A stretch of 63,556 nucleotides of DNA, counting the filler, from Collodictyon triciliatum (lineage: Eukaryota), in NCBI GenBank assembly GCA_043381765.1. It is 11 parts of 11 records of this genome, joined end to end, with 100 filler letters (N's around TTAATTAATTAA, not from the genome) between each part and the next. Parts side by side here need not be neighbours in the genome. Positions count along the whole stretch, not along the records: positions 18,660 to 24,775 come from JBHJMP010004697.1; 10 more parts are not named here. One strand, written 5' to 3'. Both the position numbers and the translations under genes were made by a program. The notes under the pieces were generated by a model. It saw only the letters and a list, made by a program, of their open reading frames with translations. It was not told the origin of the DNA and did no database searches. Of this stretch, positions 1,009 to 62,469 are shown piece after piece. Position 1 is the stretch's first letter. Every line of letters begins with the position of its first letter.

Positions 1009-1657
1009 ATGCAACCCGTTCTTGACTACCAACAAGGCTCAGACTCCAGCAGCGATCAATACAGCCTCGAAGCAGAGCGGCATATCCCCAATCAACCCAG
1101 AATGCAGATTATCAACCACGCCAACAATATCAACAACGAAAACGACATTCACGCAGCCCAGGAAGACAACTACGAGAAAGAAGCCCCGTGCAGCCAACTC
1201 TGCCAAGCATTTTTTGGATCTTGCTCTGCCTCCTCAGCGGAAAATCAGGTGGAGCGGTTTGAACAGCAGCGATCAAACTTGCCGAACAGGGGCGCTTTTC
1301 TCATATGTGGCAAGGTCCTTGTGATGGGATTCCGGCCGTATTCCGTTTGGGCTTCGCTTTGCATGACTACTGGGGTTTTGATTGTCTATGGGCTGCTGCT
1401 TTGGGGGTCGCTTCTTGGGCAGCTCTTTGGCGCGCTTCTGTACAGCCATTCATCTCTAACGTTGGCGCAAGGCTCGTCTGTGCGACTCTATGGTGATGTG
1501 TATTATGTCATGTATGATATAACCGTCCCGGATGGAGCGCAAGCTCTGCGCCTTCAATGGCATAGTCCTGTCTTGAACCGCACATACTCGCACGTGGATT
1601 CGTTTCCAGGTTACTGACTTTGTTCATAAAATATCTGCATTTTTTTATTTTTTCACA

Positions 1658-1756
<99 letters not shown>

Positions 1757-2886
1757 TTAGTGATGTTTGGGATTGAATCGAATACCTGAATTTTTAGTGT
1801 TACTCGTACAATATCGTTATTACCACTTCTATTAGCTTCATTACTTTGGGTATATGGTTGACTCATCTGCTCAATTGATGACATTATAAATAAAGGAAGC
1901 AGAGTTGGCCGACACAAAAGCGACTTCTTTTTGTCTGATGAAAGAGATATAAGACCTGGTCAGTATCTCTTTAGTGTACATTATTTCTCATCAACTAAAT
2001 ATGCGCTTTTGAGTACACAATATGATATGGCCCAAGTCGGGTTGGAGCCAGAATGCTACCTACGAGATTGTCATTTTAATCAGGTATCCGATTCACATGG
2101 CCACACAACAGTTACATCTAAGCTCATATCTATCTCCTATTGCTATTTTCTATTTGGAATTTAGTTGCATAATTATTTCTACAACCTCGTTTAGGCTATG
2201 TGAGCAACACAATTCTCTTCGTTCGTGATTCAGATTGACCATCTGTTTGATCGGATACTCTTTCTATATTTAACTGACATTTCCCCTATCAATAGAATAT
2301 GAGGGAGAAGGATTTGCTCCCCGCATTAAATGTACATAGTGTAAGGATATTCAAAGGTGTATCTAAGAAACTATATGATAGTGCAACATCCTCAACAAAA
2401 TGGATACACTACTTTCTGGTCGTCATCAACGTGCTTTTACTTTTATTTTTCTCGAGAGTTTTTTGCGAGGTCAGGAGTTTACAAATTACATGATACCATA
2501 TGCATTTTTTTCAATTTTGCTTTATTCATCTATTCTGTGTGTGCAAGATGAGATACATATGTCTTTTTCAAGCAATAATGCGTTTTTTTTTTTTTTTTTG
2601 CTTCCTCGTTCCTGAAAGAAAAGAAAAGATAATATATTCCACTGACCACCCTTCGAATAACCAATACCAGATGATATTAGTGAGGAGACTATTTCTGGCA
2701 TCGCCTATTTTTCTTATTGTCCTAACAATAATCCTTGGAGTGATAAGAAAATCATCATATTCTGCCCTGGTGTATTTCTGTAGTCTGTTTATTATTGGCT
2801 TCCCGTTCATTTTGCTACTGGCACTCACAGTTCGGATTTTCATCAAGAGAAAGTATTTCCTATTAAATAACTATGTTCTGAAATGA
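1009..2886 (+). CDS. Hypothetical multi-exon, multi-pass membrane protein
   Basis: A 203-codon ORF with a polar N-terminus, then a hydrophobic segment and a GT donor near 1610. Later ORF pieces (about 1900-2083, 2297-2490 and 2603-2886) carry TM-like stretches. Exon boundaries are approximate. Confidence 0.5.
1659..1755. repeat. (TAT)n microsatellite, intronic
   Basis: Seen directly; one example of many SSRs, including (AAT)n near 2908-2974, (AAAC)n near 5288-5390 and (ATC AT)n near 51367-51494. Confidence 0.95.
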
Positions 2887-2906
2887 ACAAAACTGCTCCT
2901 TTTTAA

Positions 2907-2975
<69 letters not shown>

Positions 2976-3090
2976 CAGCAATCATAATAAGAACTTTCAA
3001 TTTGAAGTGTTCACCTGACAAGCTAGCAAATGTACTCCATCATCTTTTTGATAATCCCAATTTCAAATCAATCACCAACCCCCCAACAGG

Positions 3091-4762
3091 ACTCTCGAGT
3101 TGATGCACTATGATGATCCACGCAGACTTTTAGTTCTTGTACAGCAAATGCGTGAGGTAATAAACCAAACTCAGAACTCAATACATCAATTAGTCGAGAC
3201 GAAGCGATTTTCAGCCAACCAAGGAAACACTTTCAAATACTACTGCCCGATCTGCATGCTCTACTTTAAATGTACCCCATCATCTATTTTTTTGTTTATA
3301 TTTATGTTTTTGTTTTATTTTGTTCATATCCTAGTTTATGCATTGCAGTCTCATCTAACTGCCATTTTGAGGGATGATGCTAATTCCATTACCTTTAAAT
3401 TGAAAGTGAATAAATTCAAATAAAACACATAATTGTAGAAAATATCACTGAATTTAAGAAAATAAAAAAATCATTCACGTCTTTTTATACTTTAAATTTT
3501 CCTCTAGCAATTATGGAGACTACATGCTGTGATCAATACATCTGCATGGATTGCGTGATTTCTTTTGCCCGAAGTAATATTCCCACGGGACTCAAAAGAT
3601 TATATTCATATTTATCATCTTCAGGCCTAGTTTTTTTTTCTTTCCCCCGTCCCCCTCTGACACGTTGTACATATTCCTCCCTTTTTGTCACGATTCTAGG
3701 CAAAGGGATTATCCCAGAAGAGTATGTTGATCTGCCTGAATCATTTCCCTCTACCAGTTGTCCATATTGTACAAAAACAAACTTCCAGGTGAATAATTTG
3801 TCATATCTTTTACGCATCTATCATGCTGTAATACGCGTTCATTCTTCGATAAAATAGTCCCGGAGTATTTTATATGTATTTTAGACATGGAATTAAATCA
3901 ACAGACAAAGTGCTTGCATTATTTCCCCTTATTTCTTTCTTTATTTTTTAAAACATTCTGTAGGTTATTGTGCCCAGCGAATCAGAAGAGACAAAAGATT
4001 ACCAGGACAGTCCACGACAAGGCAAGACTCGTAAAGATTCTCCAGTTTTGAAAATCGGCGACTCGTTTGAAAGAATGAAAGTAAGATTGACACAAATACA
4101 CTACAAACAATACTTTCCTCTTCAAGTTCCGGGTAGAAAATGCACACACACGAAGGATTAAGAAACTTTGAAAACCTCTCCCGCAGGCCAAAATGATTAA
4201 GCTTGAGAGCTTGGCTCCGCTACCAGACCCAGAGAAGAGCAAATCTGTTACGAATTCCCCCGTGAGAGACAAGTAATATACCATACTCTTATAAATAACC
4301 AATCCACAAGAAAAGAAAACATTTCGTACTGTCATTTATCCTTTCTTTGACGCAGTCATCAGAACTTGACCAAAATACATTGGTGTTGGCTGGCCTCGTT
4401 TCTTTCTTCCCTTCTTTCATCATCCAGACATATACACACAAACCTAACCATCACTCTTGCATATATCCAGCCGTCCTCTTCCGCCAAACACAATGTCGCC
4501 TGCACAGTTATCATCAGACCACTCGCTCGCCAGCGAAGACCAAGTGAGAGAACACCAAAGCTCGCCTGTGTTCGTGAACAGAGACAACCAGGAGCAGCAA
4601 ATGCACAGAGTCGAGCATCGCACGGGCATTTTGGCCGATGGCTCGCTCCCGAGACCCCCCGAGCAACACGCAGACTACGACCAAATGCTCCCAAACACAC
4701 CCTCGCACAGCATCTCGGTGATGCGGCTGGGGTCTTTGGAGTTTGGGCCGCGGAATCAGTGA
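3091..4762 (+). CDS. RING-type zinc-finger protein, SIP5/DA2/GW2-like (putative E3 ligase), multi-exon
   Basis: Spliced motif YCPICMLYF / METTCCDQYICMDC / SCPYCTKTNFQV across exons at about 3091-3271, 3508-3586 and 3701-3789, followed by low-complexity exons. The 5' end is uncertain. Confidence 0.65.
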
Positions 4763-6028
4763 TTGTTGTTTGATATGTGAATTCCAGTGTGACAACTCTC
4801 TTTTTCTTTCTTTTTTTTCTTTCTTGCTTTTCATTGATTGAGAAGTTGATATATCCTGTTTGATGTCATTTTTCTTTCTAAGATTTTTAAAATTATCGGT
4901 CATTATCTTCGTGAAATCAAAGTTTTGGTCTTGGTCTTAATCATGTTCATATGTTCTCTTTACTATATATATGCTATTAAAAAGAGAGAGGGAATAAAAT
5001 CGAAACATGTGAAATCTGTTATGCCCATCATTTACCTGACAAATATTTTCTTGAACATATTTTCAGTTTTGCTCACAGTAGGAAAGATACAAGCCCATCA
5101 CGCATAGAAAGAATAGAAAGAAACATGCATATTCAAGAAGGCTGTCAGAATACCGATTACTGCGTATTAAGATAGATTATTGATGGGTTGTCTGCGCCCG
5201 TCTAAAATAATCTTCATCTACCATGGATCCTTTCGAATAATCCAACGGGGGAAAAATGTTGTTATGAGGTAAAAATGTGAAAGAGTAAACAAACAAACAA
5301 ACAAACAAACAAACAAACAAACAAACAAACAAACAAACAAACAAACAAACAAACAAACAAACAAACAAACAAACAAACAAACAAACAAACATTCGAGGCA
5401 GGTTCATTCGTAAAGTTCGAAACATAAAAATATGATAGTTTATGTAATTCAACTTTCTCTCCTTTTTTTTTTTTTACTGGAGTTTGTCCTATGTGAGAAA
5501 ACGACGAGCAAACATATGCGCCCTTAACATAGCGTCACCTAAACTCATGATGTCGCCTTAAGTGTGTACCAATCAACTTGCTTCAACTTCTTCAACCGCA
5601 GCTCAATCTATTTTTGATAACCGCATGACAAAGAAGGATGAAGAATACATACATACATATATAAACATATCCAGGGTGGTCTGCATAGAAAACAATTTAA
5701 AAAGAGTACAAATAAAGGCTAAACTCAAAGCCGCATAATATTTCAAGCTCTAAGAAAATATTCCACGATTATGTGCGTGTGTCAAAGAATACCTTTGGGC
5801 TGCTATAGCTAATCGTCGATTCTTTTGGGATGATTGTGGACGACAGTCTTATATCGAGATAAAGTGGCGGGCCGCCTCCAATACGCTTCAACAGAGCTGT
5901 AATCTGTGTCATTATCATTATCATAATCATTACCATTATTATTAATAGAAAATAGAGACTTTAAAAGCATTATTCACAGTTAGCACATAAAATTTAAAAA
6001 TTGAGAACTATGCAAAAAAAAAAAAAAA

Positions 6029-6111
<83 letters not shown>

Positions 6112-6220
6112 CCAACAAAANNNNNNNNNNNNNNNNNNNNNNNNNNNNNNNNNNNNNNNNNNNNTTAATTAATTAANNNNNNNNNNNNNNNNNNNNNNNN
6201 NNNNNNNNNNNNNNNNNNNN

Positions 6221-7531: not shown

Positions 7532-9463
7532 GTGGCTGCTTTTTATATGGGATAGAAGCGGGGCAAGTTGAAAGAAAATAAAGCAATCTTGGTGGGCATT
7601 ATCATTGGCGTGCTGGGTTGAGAAATCATCCCCAAGATGCTCTGACAAGGTTGAGGCAGGATGATGAAAAATACATAATGGTTATTTAGATTGTGGTTTT
7701 TAAGATTCTCGTCACTTTTTTTGATTTTTTTGCAGTTACAGTTGGGTTGCTGTTGATAGGTCAATTCATTGAGAAAACAGAGATATGTCACGCGTGGTGC
7801 TCGGCAAAGCAATCCACTTATCGTTCAGATTTCATAAGGAAATATCTTACCTCTTCAATCTTCTGTCATCTGTCAAACCGGACGCCTATTTGTGTGTTCC
7901 TCAAGCTAGACATGCGTCTTTTTATATGTCCTGTTAAATCCCAGCCGGCAATGGCGAAGCACATTCGAAACGCATTAAGTGAAGTCCCTTTGGCGAGGCG
8001 GCAGACAGGATGACATGTGGGCCCTATTGGGTCAAAGGTATCCTAGAAGCCTCTGGAAGCTTTCGCCTTCAGTGCAACCTTTACTGGAAAAACCACCTGT
8101 ATTTTATATTCCTCCATAATCTAATCATCCTTTATGTCACACTGGGAATGTCTTTTCAACTTTGGTTTTTTTTTAGATTATAAATTGAGTTGCCACATGA
8201 AAGTAACCAAAGACACTCCATCACTCTGTGCTTCTTTTACTTGAGTATCAAGGCAGCCATTGTTACTTATCCGAAATGATACTCCAAAGCGAAGGCAACA
8301 CAATAATCAGCGCCCACCAAAGATAGTCCGTTTACCCTCCCCAGCCCGTTGCACCGAGAACCAAGGAGCAAGAGCAAATGCCACAAGTCGAATCCGAGCT
8401 TGAAACTCCACATACCAATGACAGTCCGAGCAAGCAGGAGCGTATATTTCTAAAACCACATACAAGTTTGGCCATATTCCGGTTAGGCGAAGTCCACTGC
8501 CAAATACGCATGGTTACAAAACCAGGAGACGGTCAAGCGCCACTTCCGTGAATACCAGACAAACAACGATATATCGCGTTCTGTCTGAGTCGCCCAGCAA
8601 GAAACGTAAGGAAAGTGACCCGTTGTCCCCTCAAAAGACTCAATCCTGTGGAATGAAATAGGATGTACGGCTTGTCCGAGATAGACGGTTGAAAGGTCTT
8701 GTTGGAATCGATTCTTGAATTAACAGCCTTGNNNNNNNNNNNNNNNNNNNNNNNNNNNNNNNNNNNNNNNNNNNNNNNNNNNNNNNNNNNNNNNNNNNNN
8801 NNNNNNNNNNNNNNNNNNNNNNNNNNNNNNNNNNNNNNNNNNNNNNNNNNNNNNNNNNNNNNNNNNNNNNNNNNNNNNNNNNNNNNNNNNNNNNNNNNNN
8901 NNNNNNNNNNNNNNNNNNNNNNNNNNNNNNNNNNNNNNNNNNNNNNNNNNNNNNNNNNNNNNNNNNNNNNNNNNNNNNNNNNNNNNNNNNNNNNNNNNNN
9001 NNNNNNNNNNNNNNNNNNNNNNNNNNNNNNNNNNNNNNNNNNNNNNNNNNNNNNNNNNNNNNNNNNNNNNNNNNNNNNNNNNNNNNNNNNNNNNNNNNNN
9101 NNNNNNNNNNNNNNNNNNNNNNNNNNNNNNNNNNNNNNNNNGACAAATCAGGCATCATTACGCAAATTGCCTCCCAATTTTGGATATTGGTATATCATAC
9201 CAAATCTGTCGAAATAGTCATTTCTGGAATAAATGCACGTCAATTTTCCCTTTTTGCGCTAAACCCTCTACTACAAACCTGCCAAAAACCACAACTCTGT
9301 TTTGTGACTTTGATCGAGCACAGGCTCGGTTGAGGCAATTACCAACATCAAACACATACATACAACACGCTACACCTCCCTGTCTTTTCGTATCTTTGGA
9401 AATAGTTATTATTTTATTGTATCTGTTGAACTCTGTTTTACTCTTGCCACCACTTCTCAGCCG

Positions 9464-10346
9464 ATGGACACTGCAAGCAAAGCACCACACAAAGAAGCTG
9501 CTTTGTCCCAAGGCGAGAGCGAAGTCGATTCAAGAGCAGGAAGTGAGATGGTGGGTCTGACAACAGAGTCTAAAGGTGCGAAAGCAAGTCACTCTGGGCA
9601 AGGTCGCGCCCCTTCAAAAGCTGTAGTGGACGATGGGTTTGGGGCCAAGATTGTGCTGGGTGGTTCGTGGACTTGGATGCAACTCGCGCAGCGAATCGGC
9701 GGTGAGCAAACCGTGCAGCGCATCATATCGCAAAGCTCTACAACAGGCATTCTGGCAGCCTTGCTTTGTGCATTTGCATTCACAGCAATATCTGCTCCAC
9801 CGAGTGAGCTGACTGGAAAAGACGGTGTTTCTCGCGCATATGTGATCTGCATGTGTGTGTCGGCTCTCTCCTGTTTGGTTTCTGTGATGGTTTCGGCCCA
9901 TATCATCATCCACATCAATAGCATCGAATGGGATACCGAGAGTGTTGTTCGTGCTCTGGAAAAGTATGTTTTTTATGATAATTATAATAAAGAATGATTC
10001 TAGCATCGTATTCTAAGTTGCTTATTATTTTTAATCAATCATTTGGATAAATTACATATATTCTCTGTTGATTTGATAACTGCCTTTTGACAGGAATGGC
10101 TCTCATCTTGTCATCAGTATTGTACAGGGTTCTCTCTTTTTGGTTGGATTGATATTTTTATTCGTGGGTATTTGCCTTTTGATAAAGAACCTTTACGACG
10201 ACGTTGTGTTTTATGTTGTCATCGTTGTCAGTGCTTTTTTGGCGCTTATTGGATTCTATTCCATAAGAACCTTTTCCATTTCCATGTTTCAAACATACTT
10301 GGAGAGGGCCTCCGAGGTGATGGAATCTGGCAAGAAAGACTCCTAA
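9464..10346 (+). CDS. Small 4-TM membrane protein (Orai/PGG-like topology), two exons
   Basis: Exons about 9464-9963 and 10094-10346. TM segments include STTGILAALLCAFAFTAI, AYVICMCVSALSCLVSVMVS, LVGLIFLFVGICL and VVFYVVIVVSAFLALIGFY. Confidence 0.6.
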
Positions 10347-12080: not shown

Positions 12081-12440
12081 CAGGGTGCTGCCCTCGAGGC
12101 GACGTGTTCTGGTATGAGAATGAAAAGAAGCTGTAGCGGGAATGTTTTTTATGTTTTTTATGTTTTTTTGTGTTTTTTTATGTTTTTTTATGTTTTTTTA
12201 TGTTTTTTATGTTTTTTTATGTTTTTTTATGTTTTTTTATGTTTTTATGTTTTTTTATGTTTTTTTATGTTTTTTATGTTTTTTTATGTTTTTTTATGTT
12301 TTTTTATGTTTTTTTATGTTTTTTTATGTTTTTTTATGTTNNNNNNNNNNNNNNNNNNNNNNNNNNNNNNNNNNNNNNNNNNNNTTAATTAATTAANNNN
12401 NNNNNNNNNNNNNNNNNNNNNNNNNNNNNNNNNNNNNNNN

Positions 12441-18460
<6,020 letters not shown>

Positions 18461-18660
18461 GTTTCTTTAAATCATATTTAAATTCATGTATGCTTTTTTT
18501 TTTTTTTTTTTTAATTTTTCTTTTCAATTTTGTGCAAAATTTTGGGTCTTGAACCTTTTNNNNNNNNNNNNNNNNNNNNNNNNNNNNNNNNNNNNNNNNN
18601 NNNTTAATTAATTAANNNNNNNNNNNNNNNNNNNNNNNNNNNNNNNNNNNNNNNNNNNNA

Positions 18661-21600
18661 ACCCATGCTGAAACTCATACTGAAACTCAACCTGAAACCC
18701 ATGCTGAAACCCATGCTGAAACCCACGCTGAAACTCATGCTGAGGCTCACGCTGAAACTCATACTGAAACCCACGCTGAAACTCAACCCGAAACTCATGC
18801 TGAAACTCATACTGAAGAGAAGGTTCAAGCTCAACCTGAAACCCATGCTGAAACTCATGCTGAAACTCATGCTGAAGAAAAGGTTCAAGCCCACGCTGAA
18901 ACCCATGCCGAAACTCAACCCGAAACCCATGCTGAAGAGAAGGTTGAAACCCACGCTGAAACCCATGCTGAAACTCAACCCGAAACCCATAGTGAAGAGA
19001 AGGTTGAAACTCATGCTGAAACCCATGCTGAAACCCATACTGAAACTCATACTGAAACCCATGCTGAAGAAAAGGTTGAAGCCCATGCTGAAACCCATGC
19101 CGAAGAAAAGGTTGAAACTCATGCTGAAACCCATGCCGAAGAAAAGGTTGAAACTCATGCTGAAACCCATGCTGAAACCCATGCTGAAACCCACGCTGAA
19201 ACCCATGCTGAAACCCATGCTGAAACTCAACCTGAAACCCATGCTGAAACCCACGCTGAAACTCACGCTGAAACTCATACTGAAACCCACGCTGAGACCC
19301 GTGCTGAAACCCATACTGAAACTCATACTGAAACCCATGCTGAAGAAAAGGTTGAAACTCATGCTGAAACCCATGCTGAAGAGAAGGTTGAAACCCATGC
19401 TGAAACCCACGCTGAAACCCACGCTGAAACTCAACCTGAAACCCACGCTGAAACCCACGCTGAAACTCATGCTGAAACCCATGCTGAAACTCATACTGAA
19501 ACTCAACCTGAAACCCATGCTGAAACCCATGCTGAAACCCACGCTGAAACTCATGCTGAGGCTCACGCTGAAACCCACGCTGAGACCCGTGCTGAAACCC
19601 ATACTGAAACTCATACTGAAACCCATGCTGAAGTAAAGGCTGAGACTCATGCTGGAACCCACGCTGAAGAAAAGGTTGAAACCCATGCTGAGACCCATGC
19701 TGAAACCCACGCTGAAACCCACGCTGAGACCCACGCTGAAACCCATGCTGAAACCCATGCTGAAACCCACGCTGAAACTCATGCTGAAACTCATACTGAA
19801 ACTCATACTGAAACTCATACTGAAACTCAACCTGAAACCCATGCTGAAACCCACGCTGAAACTCAACCTGAAACCCACGCTGAAACCCACGCTGAAACTC
19901 ATGCTGAAACTCATACTGAAACTCATACTGAAACTCAACCTGAAACCCATGCTGAAACCCACGCTGAAACTCATACTGAAACTCATACTGAAACTCAACC
20001 TGAAACCCATGCTGAAACCCACGCTGAAACTCATGCTGAGGCTCACGCTGAAATCCACGCTGAGACCCGTGCTGAAACCCATACTGAAACCCATGCTGAA
20101 GAAAAGGTTGAAACTCATGCTGAAACCCATGCTGAAGAGAAGGTTGAAACCCATGCTGAAACCCATGCTGAAACCCACGCTGAAACTCATGCTGAAACTC
20201 ATACTGAAACTCAACCTGAAACCCATGCTGAAACCCACGCTGAAACTCATGCTGAAGCTCATGCTGAAGAGAAGGTTGAGACCCATGCTGAAACCCATGT
20301 TGAGACCCATACTGAAACCCATGCTGAAGAAAAGGTTGAAACTCATGCTGAATCTCATGCTGAAACCCACGCTGAAACCCACGCTGAAACCCATGCTGAA
20401 ACTCAACCTGAAACCCACGCTGAAACCCACGCTGAAACCCACGCTGAAACTCATACTGAAACCCACGCTGAGACTCAACCTGAAACCCATGCTGAAACCC
20501 ACGCTGAAACCCATGCTGAAACTCATGCTGAAGAGAAGGTTGAAACTCATACTGAAACCCATGCTGAAACTCAACCTGAAACCCACGCTGAAACTCATGC
20601 TGAAACTCATGCTGAAACCCATGCTGAAACCCATGCTGAAACCCACGCTGAAGCTCAACCTGAGACCCATGCTGAAACACGCGGTGAAGCCCATGCTGAA
20701 ACCCGCGGTGAAGCCCACGCTGAAACCCATGCTGAAACCCATGCTGAAACTCATGCTGAAGAGAAGGTTGAAACTCATGCTGAGACCCATGCTGAAACCC
20801 ATGCTGAAACTCACGCTGAAAACCATGCTGAAACTCATGCTGAAACTCATGCTGAAACTCACGCTGAAACTCATACTGAAACTCACGCTGAAGCTCATAC
20901 TGAAGAAAAGGTTGAAACTCAACCTGAGACCCATGCTGAAGCTCATACTGAAGCCCATGCTGAAACCCAACCTGAGACTCATGCTGAAACCCATGCTGAA
21001 GAAAAGGTTGAGAGCCATGCTGAAACTCATGCTGAAGAAAAGGTTGAAATTCATGCTGAAATTCGTACTGAAACCCACGCTGAAGAAAAGGTTGAGACCC
21101 ATGTTGAAACCCACGCTGAAACCCACGCTGAAACTCATGCTGAAACTCACGCTGAAACTCACGCTGAAACTCACGCTGAAACTCATGCTGAGACCCAGGC
21201 TGAAACCCACGCTGAGACCCAGGCTGAAACCCATGCTGAGACCCATACTGAGGCTCACGCTGAAACTCATGCTGAAACCCACGCTGAGACCCACGCTGAG
21301 ACCCAGGCTGAAACCCATGCTGAAACCCATGCTGAAACCCATACTGAGGCCCATACTGAAACCCATACTGAAACTCATGCTGAAACCCATGCTGAAACCC
21401 ATGCTGAAACTCATGCTGAAGAGAAGGTTGAAACCCATGCTGAAGAGAAGGTTGAAACCCATGCTGAAACCCACGCTGAGACCCATACTGAGGCTCACGC
21501 TGAAGAAAAGGCTGAAACTCAACCCGAAACCCATAGTGAAGAGAAGGTTCAAGCTCAACCTGAAACCCATGCTGAAACTCATACTGAAACTCATGCTGAA

Positions 21601-23910
21601 ACTCATGCTGAAACTCATGCTGAAACTCATAGTGAAGAAAAGGTTGAGACTCACGCTGAAACCCATGCTGAAGAAAAGGTTGAGAGCCATGCTGAAACTC
21701 ATGCTGAAGAAAAGGTTGAAACTCATGCTGAAATTCATACTGAAACCCACGCTGAAGAAAAGGTTGAGACCCATACTGAAACCCACGCTGAAACTCACGC
21801 TGAAACTCATGCTGAAACTCACGCTGAAACTCATGCTGAAACTCATGCTGAGACCCAGGCTGAAACCCACGCTGAGACCCAGGCTGAAACCCATTCTGAG
21901 ACCCATACTGAGGCTCACGCTGAAACCCATACTGAAACCCACGCTGAGACCCACGCTGAGACCCAGGCTGAAACCCATGCTGAGACCCATGCTGAAGAGA
22001 AGGTTGAAGCTCAACGCGAAACCCACGCTGAAAAGGTTGAGACCCATACTGAAACCCACGCTGAGACCCATGCTGAAGAGAAGGTTGAAACCCATGCTGA
22101 AACCCACGCTGAGACCCATACTGAGGCTCACGCTGAAACCCATGCTGAAACTCATGCTGAAGAGAAGGTTGAAACCCATGCCGAGACCCACGCTGAAGGG
22201 AAGGTGGAAACCCATGCTGAGACCCACACTGAAGCTCATACTGAAGAGAAGGTTGAAACACATGCTGAGACTCATGCTGAAACCTATGCAGAAGCTCAAC
22301 CTGAAACCCATGCTGAAACTCACGCTGAAGCTCAACCTGAAACCCATGGTGAAACCCACACTGAAGCTCATACTGAAACCCATGCTGAAGAGAAGGTTGA
22401 GACCCACGCTGAAGAGAAGGCTGAAACCCACGCTGAAACCCACGCTGAAACCCACGCTGAGACCCATGCTGAAGAGAAGGTTGAAACCCATGCTGAAACC
22501 CATGCTGAAACTCACGCTGAGACCCATACTGAGGCTCACGCTGAAGAAAAGGCTGAAACCCATGGTGAAACCCACACTGAAGCTCATGCTGAAACCCACG
22601 CTGAAGAAAAGGTTGAGACCCATGCTGAAACTCACGCTGAAACCCACGCTGAAGAAAAGGTTGAGACCCACGCTGAAACTCACGCTGAAACCCATGCTGA
22701 AACTCACGCTGAAGAAAAGGTTGAAACTCAACCTGAAACTCAACCTGAAACCCATGCTGAAACCCATGCTGAAGAGAAGGTTGAAACTCATGCTGAAGCT
22801 CATACTGAAGAAAAGGTTGATACCCAACCTGAAACTCAACCTGAAACCCATGCTGAAGAGAAGGTTGAAACTCATGCTGAAACCCACGCTGAGACCCATG
22901 CTGAAACCCACGCTGAAGAAAAGGTTGAAACTCATGCTGAAACCCATGCTGAAACCCATGCTGAAACCCATGCTGAAACCCATGCTGAAGAGAAGGTTGA
23001 AACTCATGCTGAGGCTCATGCTGAAACCCACGCTGAAACTCAACCTGAAACTCAACCTGAAACTCATCCTGAAACCCATACTGAAACCCATGCTGAAGAG
23101 AAGGTTGAGAGCCATGCTGGAACCCATGCTGAGACCCACGCTGAAGCTCATGCTGAAACCCATGCTGAAACTCATGCTGAAGAGAAGGTTGAAACTCATA
23201 CTGAAACCCATGCTGAAACCCACGCTGAAGAGAAGGTTGAAGCTCATGCTGGAACCCATGCTGAGACCCACGCTGAAGCTCATGCTGAAACCCATGCTGA
23301 AACTCATGCTGAAACTCAACCTAAAACCCACGCTGAAACCCACGCTGAAACTCATACTGAAACTCACGCTGAAACTCATGCTGAAGCCCATGCTGAAGCC
23401 CATGCTGAAGCCCATGCTGAGACTCACGCTGAAACTCATGCTGAAGCCCATGCTGAAACCCATGCTGAAAGCCATACTGAAGAGAAGGTTGAAACCCATG
23501 CTGAAACTCATGCTGAAGAGAGGGTTGAAACTCATGCTGAAACCCATGCTGAAACCCACGCTGAGACCCAACCTGATGAAAAGGTTGAGAGCCATGCTGA
23601 AACCCATGTTGAGACCCACACTGAAGAGAAGGTTGAAACCCATGCTGAAACTCACGCTGAAACCCACGCTGAAACTCATACTGAAACCCATGCTGAAACC
23701 CATGCTGAAACTCATGTTGAGGCTCATGCTGAAACCCAACCTGAAATCCAACCTGAAACTCATGCTGAGGCTCATGCTGAAACCCATGCTGAAACTCATG
23801 TTGAGGCTCATGCTGAAACCCAACCTGAAATCCAACCTGAAACCCATACTGAAGCTCATGCTGAAACCCAACCTGAAACCCATGCTGAAACTCATGCCGA
23901 AGGAAAGGCT
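18661..23910 (+). repeat. Coding minisatellite, 12-bp unit (GAAACCCATGCT and variants), roughly 435 units
   Basis: Units encode ETHA, ETHT, ETQP, EAHA and EEKV. Variation is mostly at third codon positions, and the one indel seen (near 22030) is 3 nt. Confidence 0.97.
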
Positions 23911-24366
23911 GAAGAGGATGTCCCGTCCAAAAAGCCATTGATGGTACACACGCTTGATTTCCTTGATGTCAAAGAGGCGGATGCATCACACGATGAGTTG
24001 TCTGACCGAAGAGAGTCACCTGCGTACCCAACGCAGACTGTACAGGTGAGTAGCAATCAATCAGAGCCTCGCCAGGTCGTCGACGAGGACACTGATAACC
24101 AACCAGAGAAGCCTACAAAAGACACCAATGATGACCCATTCGATGACAGTTTGGACAAGTTATTGAGCGACGTTGCAGATACCAAGCTCGACTTCGAAGA
24201 TTCTCATCCAGTCACGTCAGCAAGCGGAGAGCCGCCAAAGAGACCCGAAACGCCGAAGAAAGAGCCCACACCAAAAAAGGCTGAGACGCCGAGGAAACAA
24301 AGTACCCATCAATCACCAAAAGCGAGCCAAGATGAACGAGCTCGCAAGCTGAGTGCTAGTGTATGA
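18661..24366 (+). CDS. 5'-truncated giant Glu/Thr/His/Ala tetrapeptide-repeat protein (>=1,901 aa)
   Basis: The frame from 18661 (ACC CAT GCT GAA...) has no stop until TGA at 24364-24366 and is the same frame as track ORF 22204-24366. The repeat runs into a unique acidic/Pro/Lys-rich C-terminus of about 150 aa. Confidence 0.8.
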   Translation, partial: THAETHTETQPETHAETHAETHAETHAEAHAETHTETHAETQPETHAETHTEEKVQAQPETHAETHAETHAEEKVQAHAETHAETQPETHAEEKVETHAETHAETQPETHSEEKVETHAETHAETHTETHTETHAEEKVEAHAETHAEEKVETHAETHAEEKVETHAETHAETHAETHAETHAETHAETQPETHAETHAETHAETHTETHAETRAETHTETHTETHAEEKVETHAETHAEEKVETHAETHAETHAETQPETHAETHAETHAETHAETHTETQPETHAETHAETHAETHAEAHAETHAETRAETHTETHTETHAEVKAETHAGTHAEEKVETHAETHAETHAETHAETHAETHAETHAETHAETHAETHTETHTETHTETQPETHAETHAETQPETHAETHAETHAETHTETHTETQPETHAETHAETHTETHTETQPETHAETHAETHAEAHAEIHAETRAETHTETHAEEKVETHAETHAEEKVETHAETHAETHAETHAETHTETQPETHAETHAETHAEAHAEEKVETHAETHVETHTETHAEEKVETHAESHAETHAETHAETHAETQPETHAETHAETHAETHTETHAETQPETHAETHAETHAETHAEEKVETHTETHAETQPETHAETHAETHAETHAETHAETHAEAQPETHAETRGEAHAETRGEAHAETHAETHAETHAEEKVETHAETHAETHAETHAENHAETHAETHAETHAETHTETHAEAHTEEKVETQPETHAEAHTEAHAETQPETHAETHAEEKVESHAETHAEEKVEIHAEIRTETHAEEKVETHVETHAETHAETHAETHAETHAETHAETHAETQAETHAETQAETHAETHTEAHAETHAETHAETHAETQAETHAETHAETHTEAHTETHTETHAETHAETHAETHAEEKVETHAEEKVETHAETHAETHTEAHAEEKAETQPETHSEEKVQAQPETHAETHTETHAETHAETHAETHSEEKVETHAETHAEEKVESHAETHAEEKVETHAEIHTETHAEEKVETHTETHAETHAETHAETHAETHAETHAETQAETHAETQAETHSETHTEAHAETHTETHAETHAETQAETHAETHAEEKVEAQRETHAEKVETHTETHAETHAEEKVETHAETHAETHTEAHAETHAETHAEEKVETHAETHAEGKVETHAETHTEAHTEEKVETHAETHAETYAEAQPETHAETHAEAQPETHGETHTEAHTETHAEEKVETHAEEKAETHAETHAETHAETHAEEKVETHAETHAETHAETHTEAHAEEKAETHGETHTEAHAETHAEEKVETHAETHAETHAEEKVETHAETHAETHAETHAEEKVETQPETQPETHAETHAEEKVETHAEAHTEEKVDTQPETQPETHAEEKVETHAETHAETHAETHAEEKVETHAETHAETHAETHAETHAEEKVETHAEAHAETHAETQPETQPETHPETHTETHAEEKVESHAGTHAETHAEAHAETHAETHAEEKVETHTETHAETHAEEKVEAHAGTHAETHAEAHAETHAETHAETQPKTHAETHAETHTETHAETHAEAHAEAHAEAHAETHAETHAEAHAETHAESHTEEKVETHAETHAEERVETHAETHAETHAETQPDEKVESHAETHVETHTEEKVETHAETHAETHAETHTETHAETHAETHVEAHAETQPEIQPETHAEAHAETHAETHVEAHAETQPEIQPETHTEAHAETQPETHAETHAEGKAEEDVPSKKPLMVHTLDFLDVKEADASHDELSDRRESPAYPTQTVQVSSNQSEPRQVVDEDTDNQPEKPTKDTNDDPFDDSLDKLLSDVADTKLDFEDSHPVTSASGEPPKRPETPKKEPTPKKAETPRKQSTHQSPKASQDERARKLSASV

Positions 24367-24689
24367 ACATGTGAAGCGCATATAACCTGATATCTCATTC
24401 TATATGCAGTTAAAAAATAAGACATTAAGGCCTCTTATTTTTTTTTCTACTTTCCCCCAATAATAAATTATGGAAAAGAATAAAAGACTCACCAGTACTT
24501 GCAGCTACATACAAAAATCTCACCACAGACTGTTACATAGTTGAGTGACTTCTCCGCACAAGGCGCTGAAGACATGATGCAAGTACGTCACCCCTCCTTT
24601 TATATTACAGGACGCATTGTGTCTCACGTTGATTTAATATGTAGAATATAATTTGTCTAATCAGTATACAATCTACTTTGATTAATATG

Positions 24690-24769
<80 letters not shown>

Positions 24770-24875
24770 TCTCCTNNNNNNNNNNNNNNNNNNNNNNNNN
24801 NNNNNNNNNNNNNNNNNNNTTAATTAATTAANNNNNNNNNNNNNNNNNNNNNNNNNNNNNNNNNNNNNNNNNNNN

Positions 24876-27325
24876 GAGACTGAGACTGAGACTGAGACTG
24901 AGACTGAGACTGAGACTGAGACTGAGACTGAGACTGAGACTGAGACTGAGACTGAGACTGAGACTGAGACTGAGGTTGAGATTGAGATATAGGCTGTTCT
25001 AGTGTGACAGACTTCATCGCAGATTCTGACTCGGATATCGTCATTATGACATTTTTGTCGAGAATTTCCTCTACTAAAATTCTTTCGGTATGCAAATGTT
25101 TTTTCTTCAATTCAATTTTTGTGTATCTTAATTTCGCGGGTAATTGAATATTTGATTCATTCTGCTCGCCAACAGGCAAGTATGGAACTCTGCCTGCGAA
25201 ACTCCCACTCACAAAATCAAAAGAATTACTGGAGTAATTTTTCTTTCTGTCATTTTTTGTGCTGGCCTTACTTCGGTCCCGTATTTTGTCAGCTCCTGGA
25301 AAGATCTCTTCATGACTCGAACATATGTGATTACATCTTTTTACCCCAAATCCTATGTATCCTTTTACACCAAAAACGAGTGTAAGTTTCATGTCTACTA
25401 TAATGTATAAGGTATAAATACAAAACCTACCCCGCTGTGCAGGCGAACAGTTCGCTTTGGGTAAATCACAGTACGGTTCTGTGTGATGTTTTTGGCGTAT
25501 TCCAAAGGATGAGACATGTGACTCTATTTTTTCATAACTTTGCTGGTGTTTGTGCCCAATAACTTGCAGGTGATATGGTGAATTGTGTGTCACTTTTTTT
25601 AATAATGTGAACAGTTTCGTACTTTTGAGGGATTGAATAAAAAATATAGCCTTGGTTTCTACTTTCTGCTGAGGAGTTCGAGCAGTGGATGTTTTTTCTT
25701 TATATGCTATAATTAGTTAAGTCAGTGTTTGCATTCCCCTGATGAATTACTATTTTTATTGAGTTATTAGTTTACAAAATGGCTAACTGCAGTATTCCTT
25801 CGGGAATGTTGATAACATTGGATATCTATCAGCAAGGGAAGTAGGTAAGCAGTTACCTTTTTTGACCCATTTTTCAATTACTATATTATAATCGGGAAGT
25901 TGAACTTTAATTTCGGCATTGTACTGTCGGCAAATTTGAAATATCTATTCGTTGGTATACATTAAAGTTTCATCCTGTTTTGAGGCTAAAAAATGATAAA
26001 AATTATGATATGTTGTGCAAAAAAAAAAAGATCATGGAGTCCACACCTGCTGGGGCCATATTCTCCTTTAAAGATATATTTAAAACAATTAAAATTAGAA
26101 GATATATGTGTATAAATGCAAAATACAAGATATGAAGCATGGGTAAAATAAAACCTAATCCAAAATTTATAAGCGATGTATCCCTTGAGATAAAATTTTA
26201 GTCTGCTTGGTATGCAAGTGTGCGAAACTCTAAAGAATTCTGATTTTGCGTGTGTCACATGATAATCTAAGGAATTAAATTGCTTTTATTGACTTAAATT
26301 GAAATGTAAGAAGATCGAAGCTGATTGTGTTGGTGATCGGATAGATGACAATAGTAAAAGAAAAGGTATTGTTTCCTGACCTTTATGACTCTGAATATGC
26401 TGCTTCTTGGGGTTGTTCATATATTTAGAATATATATTTTGTAAAAATTGAGAATTCAAAAAATATTTTAAAAAAGCTTAAAACTAAACGTTATCATCAT
26501 GTTATTTTAGCATACCAAATCGTATGAATCAACTACCTCTTTTACCCAGTGAGGATTTCGTTCTTCTCTTATTCGAATATTTGAATCAAGTTTGTTCGTG
26601 GAAGCCCTGGAAATATTTCTATATTGTGCATCTTTCTTAAGCAACTTTTTTAGGTCGTAAGTATTTCTATCTGGTGGATAAACTATCTTTGCTTTTTCTA
26701 AAGTCATAATAATTGTTTCTATGGTACTATTTGATGTTCCTTTTTGAGTGTGCCCCGTCTTCGGTAGATTCTCATCAGAATAGCAGAAAAATGATTTTAT
26801 GTCAGGCGGTGAAATCATATCTTTTCGTGATTTTTTTGATATGTCTGCCCCATCTAATTTCTTCTGACATCGATTTGTGTATGTAAGTGTAAAAACCACA
26901 GGTTGACTGCGCCCAACACTCTCATCGCTTAACCTCGTATTTTTTGCCGTACTTGCATTGGATAGTAAACGGTATTCATTCTCATGTGCATGTTTTAGAT
27001 TAAAGCCGTCAATATAACTTGCTTTTCCAGTTGATAGTAATCGAGAATAGTCAGGTAGACATTTTCTGTTCCCAGGGGGTGATATTTTAACCAGGAAGTA
27101 GCCACGCATCAAGCTGTCGCCGCTACTTTTGGAGTTGCAGTTTGCTTGGGTGGGCTGAGTCTTTCGATCAGCGCGTACGTTTAGGAACATGCCCCAACAA
27201 TTCTTGAGACATATTTTCACACTTCCTCCTTGAGGATCGAGGCTCTCTTTTTCGAAAAGGAAGGCACAAAGGAACACAATAACAAGCAGGCGAATTCTCC
27301 CTGTCCAAGGACGTCCTGCAGCCAT
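24876..27325 (-). CDS. Hypothetical protein(s) with an N-terminal hydrophobic segment; exon structure unresolved
   Basis: A 272-codon ORF at 26507-27325 begins MAAGRPWTGRIRLLVIVFLCAFLF. An open frame at 24876-25593 ends in a (QS)n repeat at the scaffold edge. No family recognised. Confidence 0.35.
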
Positions 27326-30116: not shown

Positions 30117-31627
30117 CTGAAAGTCTTTGGTTTACTTTTTCCTTTTGAAAACTACTGAGTTTTCATTTTTAATAAAACTTGAGTCTATTAGTCAATTTAA
30201 TAATAAAAAACAGCATCAAATCAATTTATGTAAAATTAAGCATCAACCGAGACCCTCAAAATATGCGCATTGTGGCAAACAAACACACAAAGTTTTTTTA
30301 TAAGTGATTTGAGACAAAACGCTGCGAGCCGATTCGGCGAGTTTGAAAGGGCGGCCGTATAGCCATTGTGATTGAAAGTCAACATATCGACCCCAAACAA
30401 CATGATTACCGCCGCAAGAGTGGACAGTATGCTTTTTTGAAATGCATGTTTGGTGGCAGGTTTATGGGGTGGGTTCTGTCTGGGCCAAGGCAACAGCTTG
30501 TTTGAAATTTTTGAATTTCTGAAGTATATTACATAAATGAGAAATAAAATGGAAATTAATTAAAGGAATAGAATGAGATTTTTTTATGTATTAACCTTAT
30601 TATATATTCTAAGTAAACTATTATATCATTCAGGTTGTTTCTTGGCATCATCAAGCTCCTGCTTTTCTGAATCCAGATTTAACTCGATGGTTGTCTGTGC
30701 AATAAACTGCTATATATGGATTCACTTTCGTTGTATAAAAAGTTTGTTGTGCCTTGAAAGGGATAAAACCAAGTTCGTCACAACCTTTGCAATGTAGTTT
30801 ATCCATTTACAGGCCGAATAAGACCGAAGAGAAAGGAAAAGAGAAAAAGAAAAAAAAGAAAATATGTCAAAATGAATGAAAAAGAAAAAGGGGAAGAGAA
30901 AAGAAAAGAAAAGAAAAGAAAAGAAAAGAAAAGAAAAGAAAAGAAAAGAAAAGAAAAGAAAAGAAAAGAAAAGAAAAGAAAAGAAAAGAAANNNNNNNNN
31001 NNNNNNNNNNNNNNNNNNNNNNNNNNNNNNNNNNNTTAATTAATTAANNNNNNNNNNNNNNNNNNNNNNNNNNNNNNNNNNNNNNNNNNNNTGGTTCCGT
31101 ACCACAGGCGCAAGTTTCGACTCAAAGGGGTACGACAAATAGGGAATATGAGCATTCTGCACCGATAATGGTGTGAGATTTGGCTAATCTTTTTGCATGT
31201 GACATGAAGCGTGATGATAATAGCAGGGTTTAGAGACATGAATGTAATTATACTGTATTTTCCATAATTATACTGGGAACAATCTGCAAATCTATGCCTA
31301 TATTCGTCTAAATTCCCAATTCCACGCCGCCGTTCCCAAGCCCGAGGCAATAAGTATCCGTGGGCTACAAAAACCTCCGCGACGTTTATATATTTTGCAT
31401 CAAGGAAACCTTGAGTATTGGGTCTTGGGGCATCATGGAATGCAAGGAAGTGAGACGGGGAAGATATCAACGAAACGAGAGCAACGGATACCCAGAGCAG
31501 CCCGGCCAGAAGGCCATTCCAAGTGCAGAAACAACAACCAAGATACCAACACTCATCCGGGCAAATCTCCTCTTCCCCCCTCATCCTAACCCTTACCCTA
31601 ATCCACAGCAAGCCAACCAGCCACCCC

Positions 31628-37080: not shown

Positions 37081-37533
37081 CGCATTAATAAATACACACA
37101 TACACACATACACACATACACACATACACACATACACACATACACACATACACACATACACACATACACACATACACACATACACACATACACAAATACA
37201 CAAATNNNNNNNNNNNNNNNNNNNNNNNNNNNNNNNNNNNNNNNNNNNNTTAATTAATTAANNNNNNNNNNNNNNNNNNNNNNNNNNNNNNNNNNNNNNN
37301 NNNNNTTTATTTTGTTTTATTTTGTTTTATTTTGTTTTATTTTGTTTTATTTTGTTTTATTTTGTTTTATTTTGTTTTATTTTGTTTTATTTTGTTTTAT
37401 TTTGTTGAATATTTATTGGTAAACGCTCTCACAGGTGGTTTTTTCTCATTTCAACGGCCTGTTGGAGAGAGTGGAGGGCATCGGAAGCGAGCAAAGAGAG
37501 AGCCCCACCAATGAGGCGTCAGGGCCCGCGGGT

Positions 37534-43187: not shown

Positions 43188-43518
43188 TGTGTGGGTGGTT
43201 CTAGGTGGAGGACGAAGAAGGTAGGGGAAGATAACTTAGGTCTCAACAAGGTTTGTATCCTGGGGTTATCTCCCAAGCTCAATAATCGTGTAGAAACATT
43301 ATTGGATCGCTGTTTATATTTTGGTTTTTTGGTTTTTTGGTTTTTTGGTTTTTTGGTTTTTTGGTTTTTTGGTTTTTTGGTTTTTTGGTTTTTTGGTTTT
43401 TTGGTTTTTTGGTTTTTTNNNNNNNNNNNNNNNNNNNNNNNNNNNNNNNNNNNNNNNNNNNNTTAATTAATTAANNNNNNNNNNNNNNNNNNNNNNNNNN
43501 NNNNNNNNNNNNNNNNNN

Positions 43519-43975
43519 AGAAAAAAGAGAGAAAAAAGAGAGAAAAAAGAGAGAAAAAAGAGAGAAAAAAGAGAGAAAAAAGAGAGAAAAAAGAGAGAAA
43601 AAAGAGAGAAAGAGAGAAAGAGAGAGAGAGAGAGAAAAAGAGAGAGAAAAAGAGAGAGAGAAAGAGAGAGAAAAAGAGAGAGAAAAAGAGAGAGAGAGAG
43701 AGAGAAAAAAAAAGAGAGAGAAGAGAGAAAAAAAGAGAGAAAAAAAGAGAGAGAAAAGAGAGAGAAAAGAGAGAAAAAAAGAGAGAAAAAAGAGAGAAAA
43801 AAAGAGAGAAAGAGAGAAAGAGAGAGAAAAAGAGAGAGAAAAAGAGAGAGAAAAAGAGAGAGAAAAAGAAGAGAGAAAAAGAGAGAGAAAAAGAGAGAGA
43901 AAAAGAGAGAGAAAAAGAAGAGAGAGAAAAAGAGAGAGAAAAAGAGAGAGAAAAAAGAGAAAAAAAAAGAGAGAA
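43519..43975. repeat. Purine-only (A/G) low-complexity tract of about 455 bp at a scaffold start
   Basis: Seen directly. Confidence 0.95.
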
Positions 43976-44034
43976 ATGCTAGTTTCAATCTAATAATAAA
44001 ATAAAACCTTTTGTGGGCGAAGGGACGCAGCGCT

Positions 44035-49629: not shown

Positions 49630-50011
49630 NNNNNNNNNNNNNNNNNNNNNNNNNNNNNNNNNNNNNNNNNNNNTTAATTAATTAANNNNNNNNNNNNNNN
49701 NNNNNNNNNNNNNNNNNNNNNNNNNNNNNTTATCATTATCATTATCATTATCATTATCATTATCATTATCATTATCATTATCATTATCATTATCATTATC
49801 ATTATCATTATCATTATCATTATCATTATCATTATCATTATCATTATCATCCAAAATGAATACATAGCTGTTCGCCTTCCATGGCCCTGCAACCTCGTTC
49901 TTTGCATTTATAGCATTTTTCTTTGAGATTATCGCGAACGCTACAAACTCGTCTCGGGTACATTCACTTTGTTTCCTGACTTTTCTTTCGGTTGTGACTT
50001 TGCGCCAAAGG

Positions 50012-55355: not shown

Positions 55356-56796
55356 CACGATTGAAGAAAAAATGAATTTTTTTTAAAAAAAAAAAACAAA
55401 TCAATAAAGACACATCAAGATACACCAGAAAGTAGACCGAGAGAGAAAGTTTGCGAATGACAGGAAGTGTCAGGCACAACCCTTTTCGCCATAATCGCGC
55501 CGTTCGGTGACCAGGGAGTGAGAACGGAGACCATTTAGAATTGCCATTAAGGATCACACATACCCACGCGCAATGGCAAAACAAAGCCTGCAATTCACTT
55601 TATACCAGGAGGGGTATGCCAATCTTTGGCCAAACGCATCACGTTCTGGGATTGCGTGCTCAGCGTTAAGCAAACAAACAAAAAACAAACAAACAAAAAA
55701 CAAACAAACAAAAAACAAACAAACAAAAAACAAACAAACAAAAAACAAACAAAAAAACAAACAAACAAACAAACAAACAAACAAACAAACAAACAAACAA
55801 ACAAACAAACAAACAAACAAACAAACAAACAAACAAACNNNNNNNNNNNNNNNNNNNNNNNNNNNNNNNNNNNNNNNNNNNNTTAATTAATTAANNNNNN
55901 NNNNNNNNNNNNNNNNNNNNNNNNNNNNNNNNNNNNNNTTTTTGGTTTTTTTTTTGGTTCGTTTTCAAAAATATATAAAGAATCGGCTGGGCAGAAAAGA
56001 AAGTTTCGAGCTGGCAACAAGAGGGAAATGATCACCCAACGAATGTTACAGTATTGACAAGCAACAGCCCATGTTCGTTTTCTTTGCAGGACTTCATGCC
56101 ATGACAGGCCAGATGAGGATAGATAACTGCGCGTTAATCACATGCGTGTGCTTGTTTATCTCTACTGGTTATCACCGACTTTGCAGCCCGATCAACACGT
56201 TTGACTTCCGCCTCTCCTGCCACAAGCAACTTGGCAAAGCAGGTTGTCGCAACAAACAGATTATTCGAAGAAAGGAATTAGAGAAGAAAAAAATGCCATT
56301 CATTGAAAAATAGTATCTGTGGAATTTATGTTCAAAGAGGACAGTTTGGACACTTAGTCTTATTACGCCTCATCTTACTCGCCGAAGAAGTTCTAATATT
56401 AACTCCTAGTGATTAGGCTCCTGAAGCTCTGCGCTAATTCCAGGAGCCACGATTATCTCACCACATTCACCGGGCGGTTTGGGCTAAAGGCTTATTTGCT
56501 TGCTGACTCATTGGCTTTCGGTGGTACTACGGCTGCATCATTCTTTATTTTATCCTTCAGCCGCCAGAAGACGATATTCACTTTCTATTATCCCTCATTC
56601 TCCTCTATTTCCTTCACGAAACTACCATTCGCTCTGGTAGTCGATCGACAAACCGCAATAACCCGCAGCATTTCGAACATATACTCTGGCTTCTTGGAGG
56701 CGTGTGTTCTAATATGTTTAAAACAAAAAGGAAAAGGGAAAGAAAGAAAAGAAAAGAAAAGAAAAAGAACAACTAGCTTTGCTTGCGCCAAGTGGG

Positions 56797-61988: not shown

Positions 61989-62469
61989 TGGGGGGGTGGT
62001 GTTTTTTTTTTTTTTTTTTGCAGAATCGTCTTGGTAAAATATGCNNNNNNNNNNNNNNNNNNNNNNNNNNNNNNNNNNNNNNNNNNNNTTAATTAATTAA
62101 NNNNNNNNNNNNNNNNNNNNNNNNNNNNNNNNNNNNNNNNNNNNAAAGAAAAAAGAAAAAAGAAAAAAGAAAAAAGAAAAAAGAAAAAAGAAAAAAGAAA
62201 AAAGAAAAAAGAAAAAAGAAAAAAGAAAAAAGAAAAAAGAAAAGAAACATGGAGCTGTATGGAGGAGTGATACAACTTGTTCTCTTATTTGATTCCGACT
62301 CTTTTTTTTTTTTCAAGTTCTAGTACTTAATATCCACACCTGCAAACACGGCATCGCCATTCTCTCTTCTATCCTAAGCAAACTTGGGTTGGAGTTTGAT
62401 CCCATAAGTTAACAACTTTTTTCATATGTAAAAAAAGAATTCTGAATTTTTATTTTTTATTCCAAGGTG

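Follow-up and report, generated by a model that had tools for sequence, protein, structure and literature searches.

Short tandem units bearing histidine, glutamate and alanine are known from the Tx segment of avian (Galliformes/Craciformes) fast skeletal troponin T, which holds 4 to 7 tandem pentapeptides of the form H(E/A)EAH or AHH(A/E)E; this segment is reported to have a high affinity for zinc, and has been proposed to serve as a reservoir of Ca2+ and to change its protonation when the pH drops (PMC11016001). Long chains of tetrapeptides have been described in fresh water, in the TLP-4 glycofibril and the TLP-4-like proteins of diatoms and dinoflagellates, whose PT/Sxx repeats reach up to 667 units, and the TLP-4-like type is defined by a Pro adjoining Ser or Thr in each tetrapeptide (PT/Sxx or T/SPxx) (PMC11725842). 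A third case is that of the glutamate-rich repeat antigens of Plasmodium falciparum, parasite proteins studied as antibody targets (PMC11737873). Here we describe a gene of Collodictyon triciliatum (assembly GCA_043381765.1) whose central feature is an array of 436 tetrapeptide units with the consensus ETHA, found in a 63,556-base stretch of DNA (the whole stretch analysed, hereafter the window). It is a real, expressed orphan gene of unusual regularity, and is predicted to be protein-coding.

The array gene lies on a separate scaffold of 6,116 nucleotides (nt), at 18660-24775 of the window, with the following parts:

18661-23901, plus strand: tetrapeptide array, consensus GAA ACC CAT GCT (ETHA), 436 units; 5'-truncated part of a large exon

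22030-22038, plus strand: 9-nt unit GAAAAGGTT (EKV), the array's sole change in length, out of step with the 12-nt register and still in frame

23902-24360, plus strand: unique linker of 153 codons, in frame and in the same exon as the array; seen in contigs of runs X1 to X3 (described below)

24361-24540, plus strand: intron 1, 180 nt, GTATGA...ACATAG; seen as a joint in contigs of X1, X2 and X3

24541-24582, plus strand: exon 2, 42 nt, 14 codons in phase (LSDFSAQGAEDMMQ); X1 record 7 and X3 record 22

24583-24775, plus strand: start of intron 2, donor GTACGT; runs into a (TG)38 microsatellite (24692-24768) and the scaffold end

By Tandem Repeats Finder the array extends over 18660-23901 (75% matches, 0% indels), all its periods being multiples of 12; self-identity was 0.74-0.76 at lags divisible by 12, versus 0.17-0.41 at other lags. 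The first-pass annotation of this DNA had described a single open frame of at least 1,901 codons, about 1,750 residues of which were made of Glu-led, mostly His-bearing four-residue units. Both statements were confirmed: 18661-24363 translates into 1,901 residues followed by a TGA, and the array consists of 435 units of four residues and one of three, with Glu at the start of 426 of the 436, His in the third position of 332, and the exact sequence ETHA in 229. Minor types are EEKV-type units (53), units ending with Pro (37, mostly ETQP) and others (14, for instance ETRA and ETQA), those of EEKV and ETQP type being spread through the array. The 66 types of unit found at the nucleotide level reduce to 33 peptide types. 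The 3-nt indel noticed earlier was found again as the single 9-nt unit GAAAAGGTT, across which the reading frame is kept. The proposal that variation is largely synonymous stood only in part. Over all units, 661 of 1,740 array codons depart from the consensus, and the 370 non-synonymous changes outnumber the 291 synonymous ones; once the 89 EEKV-type and Pro-ending units are dropped, the remaining 346 units show 265 synonymous versus 134 non-synonymous codon differences.

Next, public sequencing runs were searched with positions 23880-24690. Sixteen runs were listed, 7 of them on record as RNA; 14 contain some part of the query, none of them as much as half of the sampled words, and the runs holding it span 10 studies. 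Contigs from four runs were compared with 23800-24775: X1, a freshwater metatranscriptome (RNA on record), X2 and X3, runs of named organisms that we guessed to be RNA, and X4, a freshwater metagenome guessed to be DNA. X1 record 6 covers 23902-24269 (368 nt) with 0 differences, and the unique linker is also covered by X2 record 14 and X3 record 22. The border between array and tail, 23835-23985, is spanned by X4 record 23 (151 nt), again with 0 differences; coverage in X4 is confined to 23835-24149, with the introns outside. Exact pieces of the locus are thus present in a freshwater metatranscriptome and in a freshwater metagenome. Contigs of the repeat type were present in X1 to X3 as well. 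The word shares of runs X5 to X16 play no part in the evidence given here.

In X1, X2 and X3, runs that belong to 2 studies, one contig apiece joins 24360 directly to 24541, skipping 180 nt. The joint has GT..AG ends on the plus strand and non-canonical ones on the other strand, so that the transcript is read from the plus strand. Transcription of this strand was a test set beforehand, and these contigs, from one run of RNA and two guessed to be RNA, bear it out. They also correct the end of the gene model. The TGA at 24364-24366, which had been taken to close the frame, is indeed present in the genome, but it is intronic, as the skipped piece begins with GTATGA, and it is spliced out in the RNA contigs. 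Similarly, what had been called a unique C-terminal segment of 150 residues is an internal linker, since splicing carries the frame from 24360 into a 42-nt exon, followed by about 1.2 kb of mRNA that is off the scaffold. Exon 1 ends at an exact codon boundary, and the frame is maintained over both splice junctions. At 24582 the X1 and X2 contigs leave the scaffold with an identical run of 30 letters, open in phase; these had no match within the window, nor did the first 26 of them in the metagenome contigs of the Joint Genome Institute (JGI). Past exon 2, X3 record 22 (1,674 nt) and X2 record 15 (1,328 nt) carry 1,218 letters, leaving room for up to about 400 further codons and an untranslated end. 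The G+C content is 0.49 in the array and 0.51 in the tail, versus 0.32 in both intron stretches. The spliceosomal GT-AG introns also show the organism to be a eukaryote.

We then examined whether the frame behaves as a coding one. Stops across the array number 0, 1, 421, 0, 157 and 1 in the six frames, and an open frame there is therefore cheap in itself, four of the six having at most one stop. The unique part is more telling: over its 153 codons the ETHA frame has 0 stops, versus 3 to 14 in the other five. Within the 12-nt unit, nucleotide entropy is greatest at the third base of the Thr codon (position 6, 1.53 bits) and of the His codon (position 9, 1.66 bits), and positions 1, 2 and 8 are almost invariant. 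Peptide entropy is 2.70 bits in the ETHA frame versus 3.30-4.31 in the others, and the ratio of non-synonymous to synonymous differences between nearby units (pN/pS), 0.53, is lower there than in any other frame. Finally, 2,000 simulated arrays were given the divergence from consensus (0.166 per site) and the spectrum of substitutions seen in the real one, with changes placed irrespective of position. In these, the ETHA frame gathered 6.2 stops on average, and 0 are seen in the real array; zero stops occurred in 0.2% of the simulations, a figure that overstates significance because units arise by duplication and not independently. Together with the frame-keeping indel, these observations uphold the earlier suggestion of a coding frame under some protein-level constraint.

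As the product has no domain, no relative and both ends off the scaffold, its bulk chemistry is the sole handle on function. The array accounts for at least 1,747 residues on the scaffold (about 195 kDa), of which Glu makes up 27.4%, Thr 22.0% (384 residues), His 19.1% (333 residues) and Ala 18.4%. Minor residues are Val (3.2%), Lys (3.1%), Pro (2.1%) and Arg (0.5%); Cys is absent (0), and hydrophobic residues are almost nil. Net charge, with standard pKa values, is about -407 at pH 7.4, -338 at pH 6.5, -129 at pH 5.5 and +130 at pH 4.5, so that the calculated product is a strong polyanion at pH 7.4 and near neutral around pH 5. His residues are spaced as His-x3-His in 242 pairs and Glu residues as Glu-x3-Glu in 417, and Pro breaks the array 37 times, with a median distance of 23 residues from one Pro to the next. 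A single-sequence AlphaFold2 run on 200 array residues plus the tail gave a mean predicted local distance difference test score (pLDDT) of 56.1; in this model the array forms helices that are 22-53 residues long, have a block-mean pLDDT of about 63-81 and are interrupted by the Pro units, and the tail is disordered apart from one short helix, mostly with pLDDT <50. With eight array segments supplied as an alignment, mean pLDDT fell to 38.5 and no secondary structure was left. To judge from these models, the array is probably a disordered or marginally helical chain. The 153-residue linker is acidic, then basic, with the motifs TPKK, TPKK and TPRK near its end.

The metal-binding, pH-responsive or structural (cyst, scale or extrusome) roles put forward in the first-pass annotation would be compatible with this composition. 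From it we tentatively suggest that the product may be a disordered or marginally helical polyelectrolyte, binding divalent cations and protons with high capacity and low affinity. The array would take up Zn2+, Cu2+, Ni2+ and perhaps Ca2+, as well as protons, in large numbers, and its charge, stiffness or self-association would shift with pH and metal load. The outcome would be a metal or proton buffer or sink, or else a tunable spacer or spring, with an anchor or specificity supplied by the missing downstream part. We lean slightly towards an intracellular rather than extracellular site of action. A bolder form of the same idea, which we consider decidedly unlikely, is a switchable polyelectrolyte, in which some 330 imidazoles and 480 carboxylates would bind protons and Zn2+-type ions in large amounts, turning a chain that is a strongly repelling polyanion at cytosolic pH into one that, near pH 5-6, is neutral, metal-bridged or condensed. 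In a phagotrophic protist such a chain could serve as a sink for protons or metal, or as a spring or gel triggered by pH; if true, it would be a kind of protein material without a described relative. Taken as a whole, the best explanation of the data is that the scaffold holds the middle part of a real, spliced, protein-coding gene, perhaps with a polyelectrolyte product of the kind suggested above, and we hold this to be probable, if only by a little.

Among the alternatives, the one that survives best, while still rather unlikely, is a secreted or surface protein of structural or mucin-like nature (cyst wall, scale, extrusome content or glycofibril), with its roughly 384 Thr O-glycosylated, or with metal cross-links between His and Glu outside the cell. 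Thr is found in almost every unit (384 of 1,747 residues), and the N-terminus is off the scaffold, so a signal peptide is possible. Giant freshwater tetrapeptide glycofibrils do exist, and proteins with up to 667 such units are reported (PMC11725842). Their Pro-Ser/Thr pattern is nevertheless not that of the array, where Pro occurs in 37 of the 436 units and follows Gln, not Thr, and the array has 0 Cys. The TPKK, TPKK and TPRK motifs of the linker, which we take to be typical kinase sites of intracellular proteins, also point away from secretion, though the hint is weak because one of the motifs is not conserved. Lastly, the sole other protein found with a long (D/A)ETH run, P0003, starts with MHRKTHKK and has no hydrophobic leader.

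We also considered that the array might be a transcribed but untranslated minisatellite within a long non-coding or untranslated RNA, its open frame a by-product of a stop-free unit. In favour of this are the four frames out of six with at most one stop across the array, and the mostly non-synonymous differences in the tail between strains. Against it, the ETHA frame is the only one open through the 153 unique codons (0 versus 3-14 stops), it stays in phase over two splice junctions, it has the third-position pattern of variation and the lowest peptide entropy of the six, 0 stops are seen where about 6 were expected, the sole length change preserves the frame, and no Rfam match was found. We thus regard an untranslated array as very unlikely. 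That a far shorter true array was inflated or scrambled by short-read assembly is highly improbable: the scaffolds do look short-read (ends at perfect simple repeats of about 100 nt, and two scaffolds with N gaps of 410 and 544 nt) and the array scaffold begins within the array, but exact repeats within the array never reach 120 nt and just 3 of its 96-mers recur, so that a long-k assembly can thread it unambiguously, it holds 66 distinct unit types and zero frameshifts in 5.2 kb, and array-type contigs of 90-95% likeness are numerous in three other runs, which is what a long and varied array predicts.

To return to the best explanation, several observations weigh against it. Both gene ends are off the scaffold, and with them any signal peptide, anchor or further domain: the 5' part is absent, as the scaffold starts inside the array, and the 3' part is cut within the intron holding (TG)38, where the scaffold stops. 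The scaffold looks short-read, and array length and unit order are given as assembled; since the scaffold breaks inside the array, its true length probably exceeds 5.24 kb. Assembled contigs directly show neither strand nor level, the RNA status of X2 and X3 is guessed, and the joined form was seen in contigs with no report on whether it also occurs as DNA. The summed depth over the array end reaches 59,119 in X3; that total is built up from many collapsed repeat contigs and was not read as a measure of expression. The pN/pS values of two non-coding frames, 0.64 and 0.71, are near the 0.53 of the ETHA frame. Compared to the X2 and X3 contigs, the tail shows 7 differences, 5 of which change a residue, so that it appears weakly constrained; through one of them the third TP motif loses its Pro. 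The two AlphaFold2 runs conflict, with helices in the single-sequence run and none in the aligned one. Finally, no homologue was found that could inform function.

This last point rests on searches of several kinds. The tail, which the first-pass annotation had singled out as the query of choice, was compared with 1.84 billion cluster representatives and gave 1 match, P0002, a satellite-like repeat protein in which one 23-residue stretch was matched 16 times; we judged it spurious. Word-index searches, divided by length, returned 0 matches (444-2000 residues), 2 (139-443) and 13 (1045-3327). All 15 have nothing but low-complexity stretches of E, T, H, A, Q and P in common with the array gene and belong to unrelated proteins, among them an Ig-domain protein, TBC RabGAPs, beta'-COP and a CBS protein. 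A scan of JGI metagenome contigs guided by the tail protein yielded 242 pattern stretches, 0 of which were confirmed by tblastn. With Pfam, the 1,901-residue translation gave nothing at E <= 1 beyond Fibrinogen_BP (PF08017), whose 11.4 bits (E = 0.094), versus a curated cut-off of 50 bits, mark a low-complexity match. The 10 PDB matches by sequence at E <= 1 were all low-complexity, circumsporozoite NANP repeats and eL29 tails included; ESM Atlas gave no usable match, and Rfam 0. In print, none of four 8-letter repeat strings was found, and the literature on His-rich or tetrapeptide repeats offered analogies only, about 1.7 million PubMed Central articles lying outside both searches. In the libraries searched, then, nothing comparable to the array was found, the matches being short low-complexity look-alikes, and the tail yielded no relative. 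The earlier impression that the protein belongs to no recognisable family is upheld across the Pfam, PDB, ESM Atlas, protein-cluster and word-index searches.

The make-up of the window bears on how the gene is to be read. The motif TTAATTAATTAA occurs 10 times in it, versus 0.05 expected by chance, and each copy has 44 N on either side, which makes an artificial linker with stops in all frames. The positions of these linkers are:

6121-6220, 12341-12440, 18560-18659, 24776-24875, 30992-31091: N44-TTAATTAATTAA-N44

37206-37305, 43419-43518, 49630-49729, 55839-55938, 62045-62144: N44-TTAATTAATTAA-N44

Their spacing is about 6.2 kb and decreases stepwise from 6,220 to 6,206. The window is thus a set of size-sorted scaffolds chained by artificial linkers, and the ten linkers delimit 11 pieces, namely nine entire scaffolds of about 6.1 kb and one piece at either end of the window. 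As the scaffolds are unrelated and artificially joined, the neighbouring pieces are uninformative on the array gene, and readings of gene neighbourhood across linkers are invalid. Most pieces end in perfect simple repeats about 100 nt long. Such simple repeats, of about 100-200 nt, were seen at 6014-6110, 12145-12340, 24692-24768, 30893-30991, 37092-37202, 43319-43418 and 55671-55838, and internal N gaps at 8732-9141 (410 nt) and 13503-14046 (544 nt). The combination of ends at simple repeats and N gaps looks typical of short-read assembly. Since the assembly breaks at microsatellites, genes whose introns hold such repeats are often split across pieces, the array gene included. The open reading frames found in several frames around 8533-9560 and 13397-14084 are artefacts, because N runs are located there.

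Two further repeats were noted at scaffold starts. The scaffold next to that of the array gene opens with (GAGACT)18.7 (97% matches, 24876-24987), which falls in a minus-strand stop-free stretch reaching 25716 (listed as 24820-25716, 298 residues), the far end of which enters the linker N run; this might be another coding hexanucleotide repeat, or a mere microsatellite at a scaffold end. At 43521-43976, an AG-rich array of a 12-nt unit, AAAAAAGAGAGA (38 copies, 87% matches), opens another scaffold, with six of six frames open over about 500 nt.

For annotation, the lessons of this locus are that the window joins unrelated scaffolds, that an apparent stop is intronic and that the gene is incomplete at both ends; functional claims must therefore wait for the full transcript. 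If translated, the product would rank among the most regular His/Glu polymers recorded in nature, with at least 1,747 residues and no detectable relative; most of its 436 four-residue units would contribute one acidic and one titratable group. It would then be a natural model for pH- or metal-responsive polypeptides and a candidate high-capacity buffer for cations or protons, from a poorly studied freshwater protist lineage.

How, then, does the array compare with the systems described so far? With troponin T Tx it shares short tandem units of His, Glu and Ala and His residues four residues apart; the His-x3-His arrangement in a Glu/Ala context is present (242 pairs among 333 His) as a chemical likeness only. 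The two differ in period (5 versus 4), in number (4-7 units versus at least 436), in gene structure (one exon per unit versus one large exon) and in Thr, which is lacking in Tx and abundant in the array. Tx is moreover an appendage of a known protein, whereas no troponin or other domain was detected in the scaffold part of the array gene. Membership of the troponin T family was rejected on this ground, there being no troponin Pfam match at E <= 1 for that part, both ends being off the scaffold. Tx is an analogy of chemistry, not of homology. The resemblance to TLP-4 is one of habitat and architecture, both being freshwater linear chains of hundreds of tetrapeptides with a hydroxy amino acid per unit. 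The array differs by its high charge, nearly all of its units containing Glu and His. It was not assigned to the TLP-4-like proteins, since Pro, found in 37 of 436 units, comes as xxQP followed by Glu, with no Thr-Pro or Pro-Thr adjacency.

RESA of Plasmodium falciparum has units of EENV type, which the EEKV units of the array resemble, and the antigens of this parasite are, like the array, acidic Glu-led tandem units of four or eight residues in a protist; they lack the regular His, and their arrays are far shorter than that of ETHA. The titin PEVK segment and neurofilament side-arms are entropic springs or spacers, and the histidine-rich Ca2+-binding protein and histidine-rich glycoprotein are histidine-rich cation binders. 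Like the array, these are long, charged, low-complexity regions that act by bulk charge, cation binding or pH; none is a strict tetrapeptide array, and none is related to it in sequence. Two such classes were tried and rejected. A PEVK-type spring contains about 70% Pro, Glu, Val and Lys, whereas these four make up about 36% of the array (2.1 + 27.4 + 3.2 + 3.1). A single alpha-helix (ER/K) domain has dense Glu alternating with Lys or Arg at i, i+4, whereas Lys is 3.1% and Arg 0.5% of the array, and a helix was predicted in the single-sequence AlphaFold2 run and none in the aligned one.

Nearest in kind is P0003, a public metagenome protein of 327 residues, with about 130 residues (about 30 units) of (D/A)ETH. 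It has the E-T-H core and the period of 4, with 52% identity over the repeat part of the query, and differs in being a tenth of the size and in its flanks, which are unrelated to the tail (best BLASTP E = 6.8); no Pfam domain was found in it. The likeness may be one of convergent low complexity and, P0003 being an unrelated small protein, E-T-H tetrapeptide arrays may have arisen more than once.

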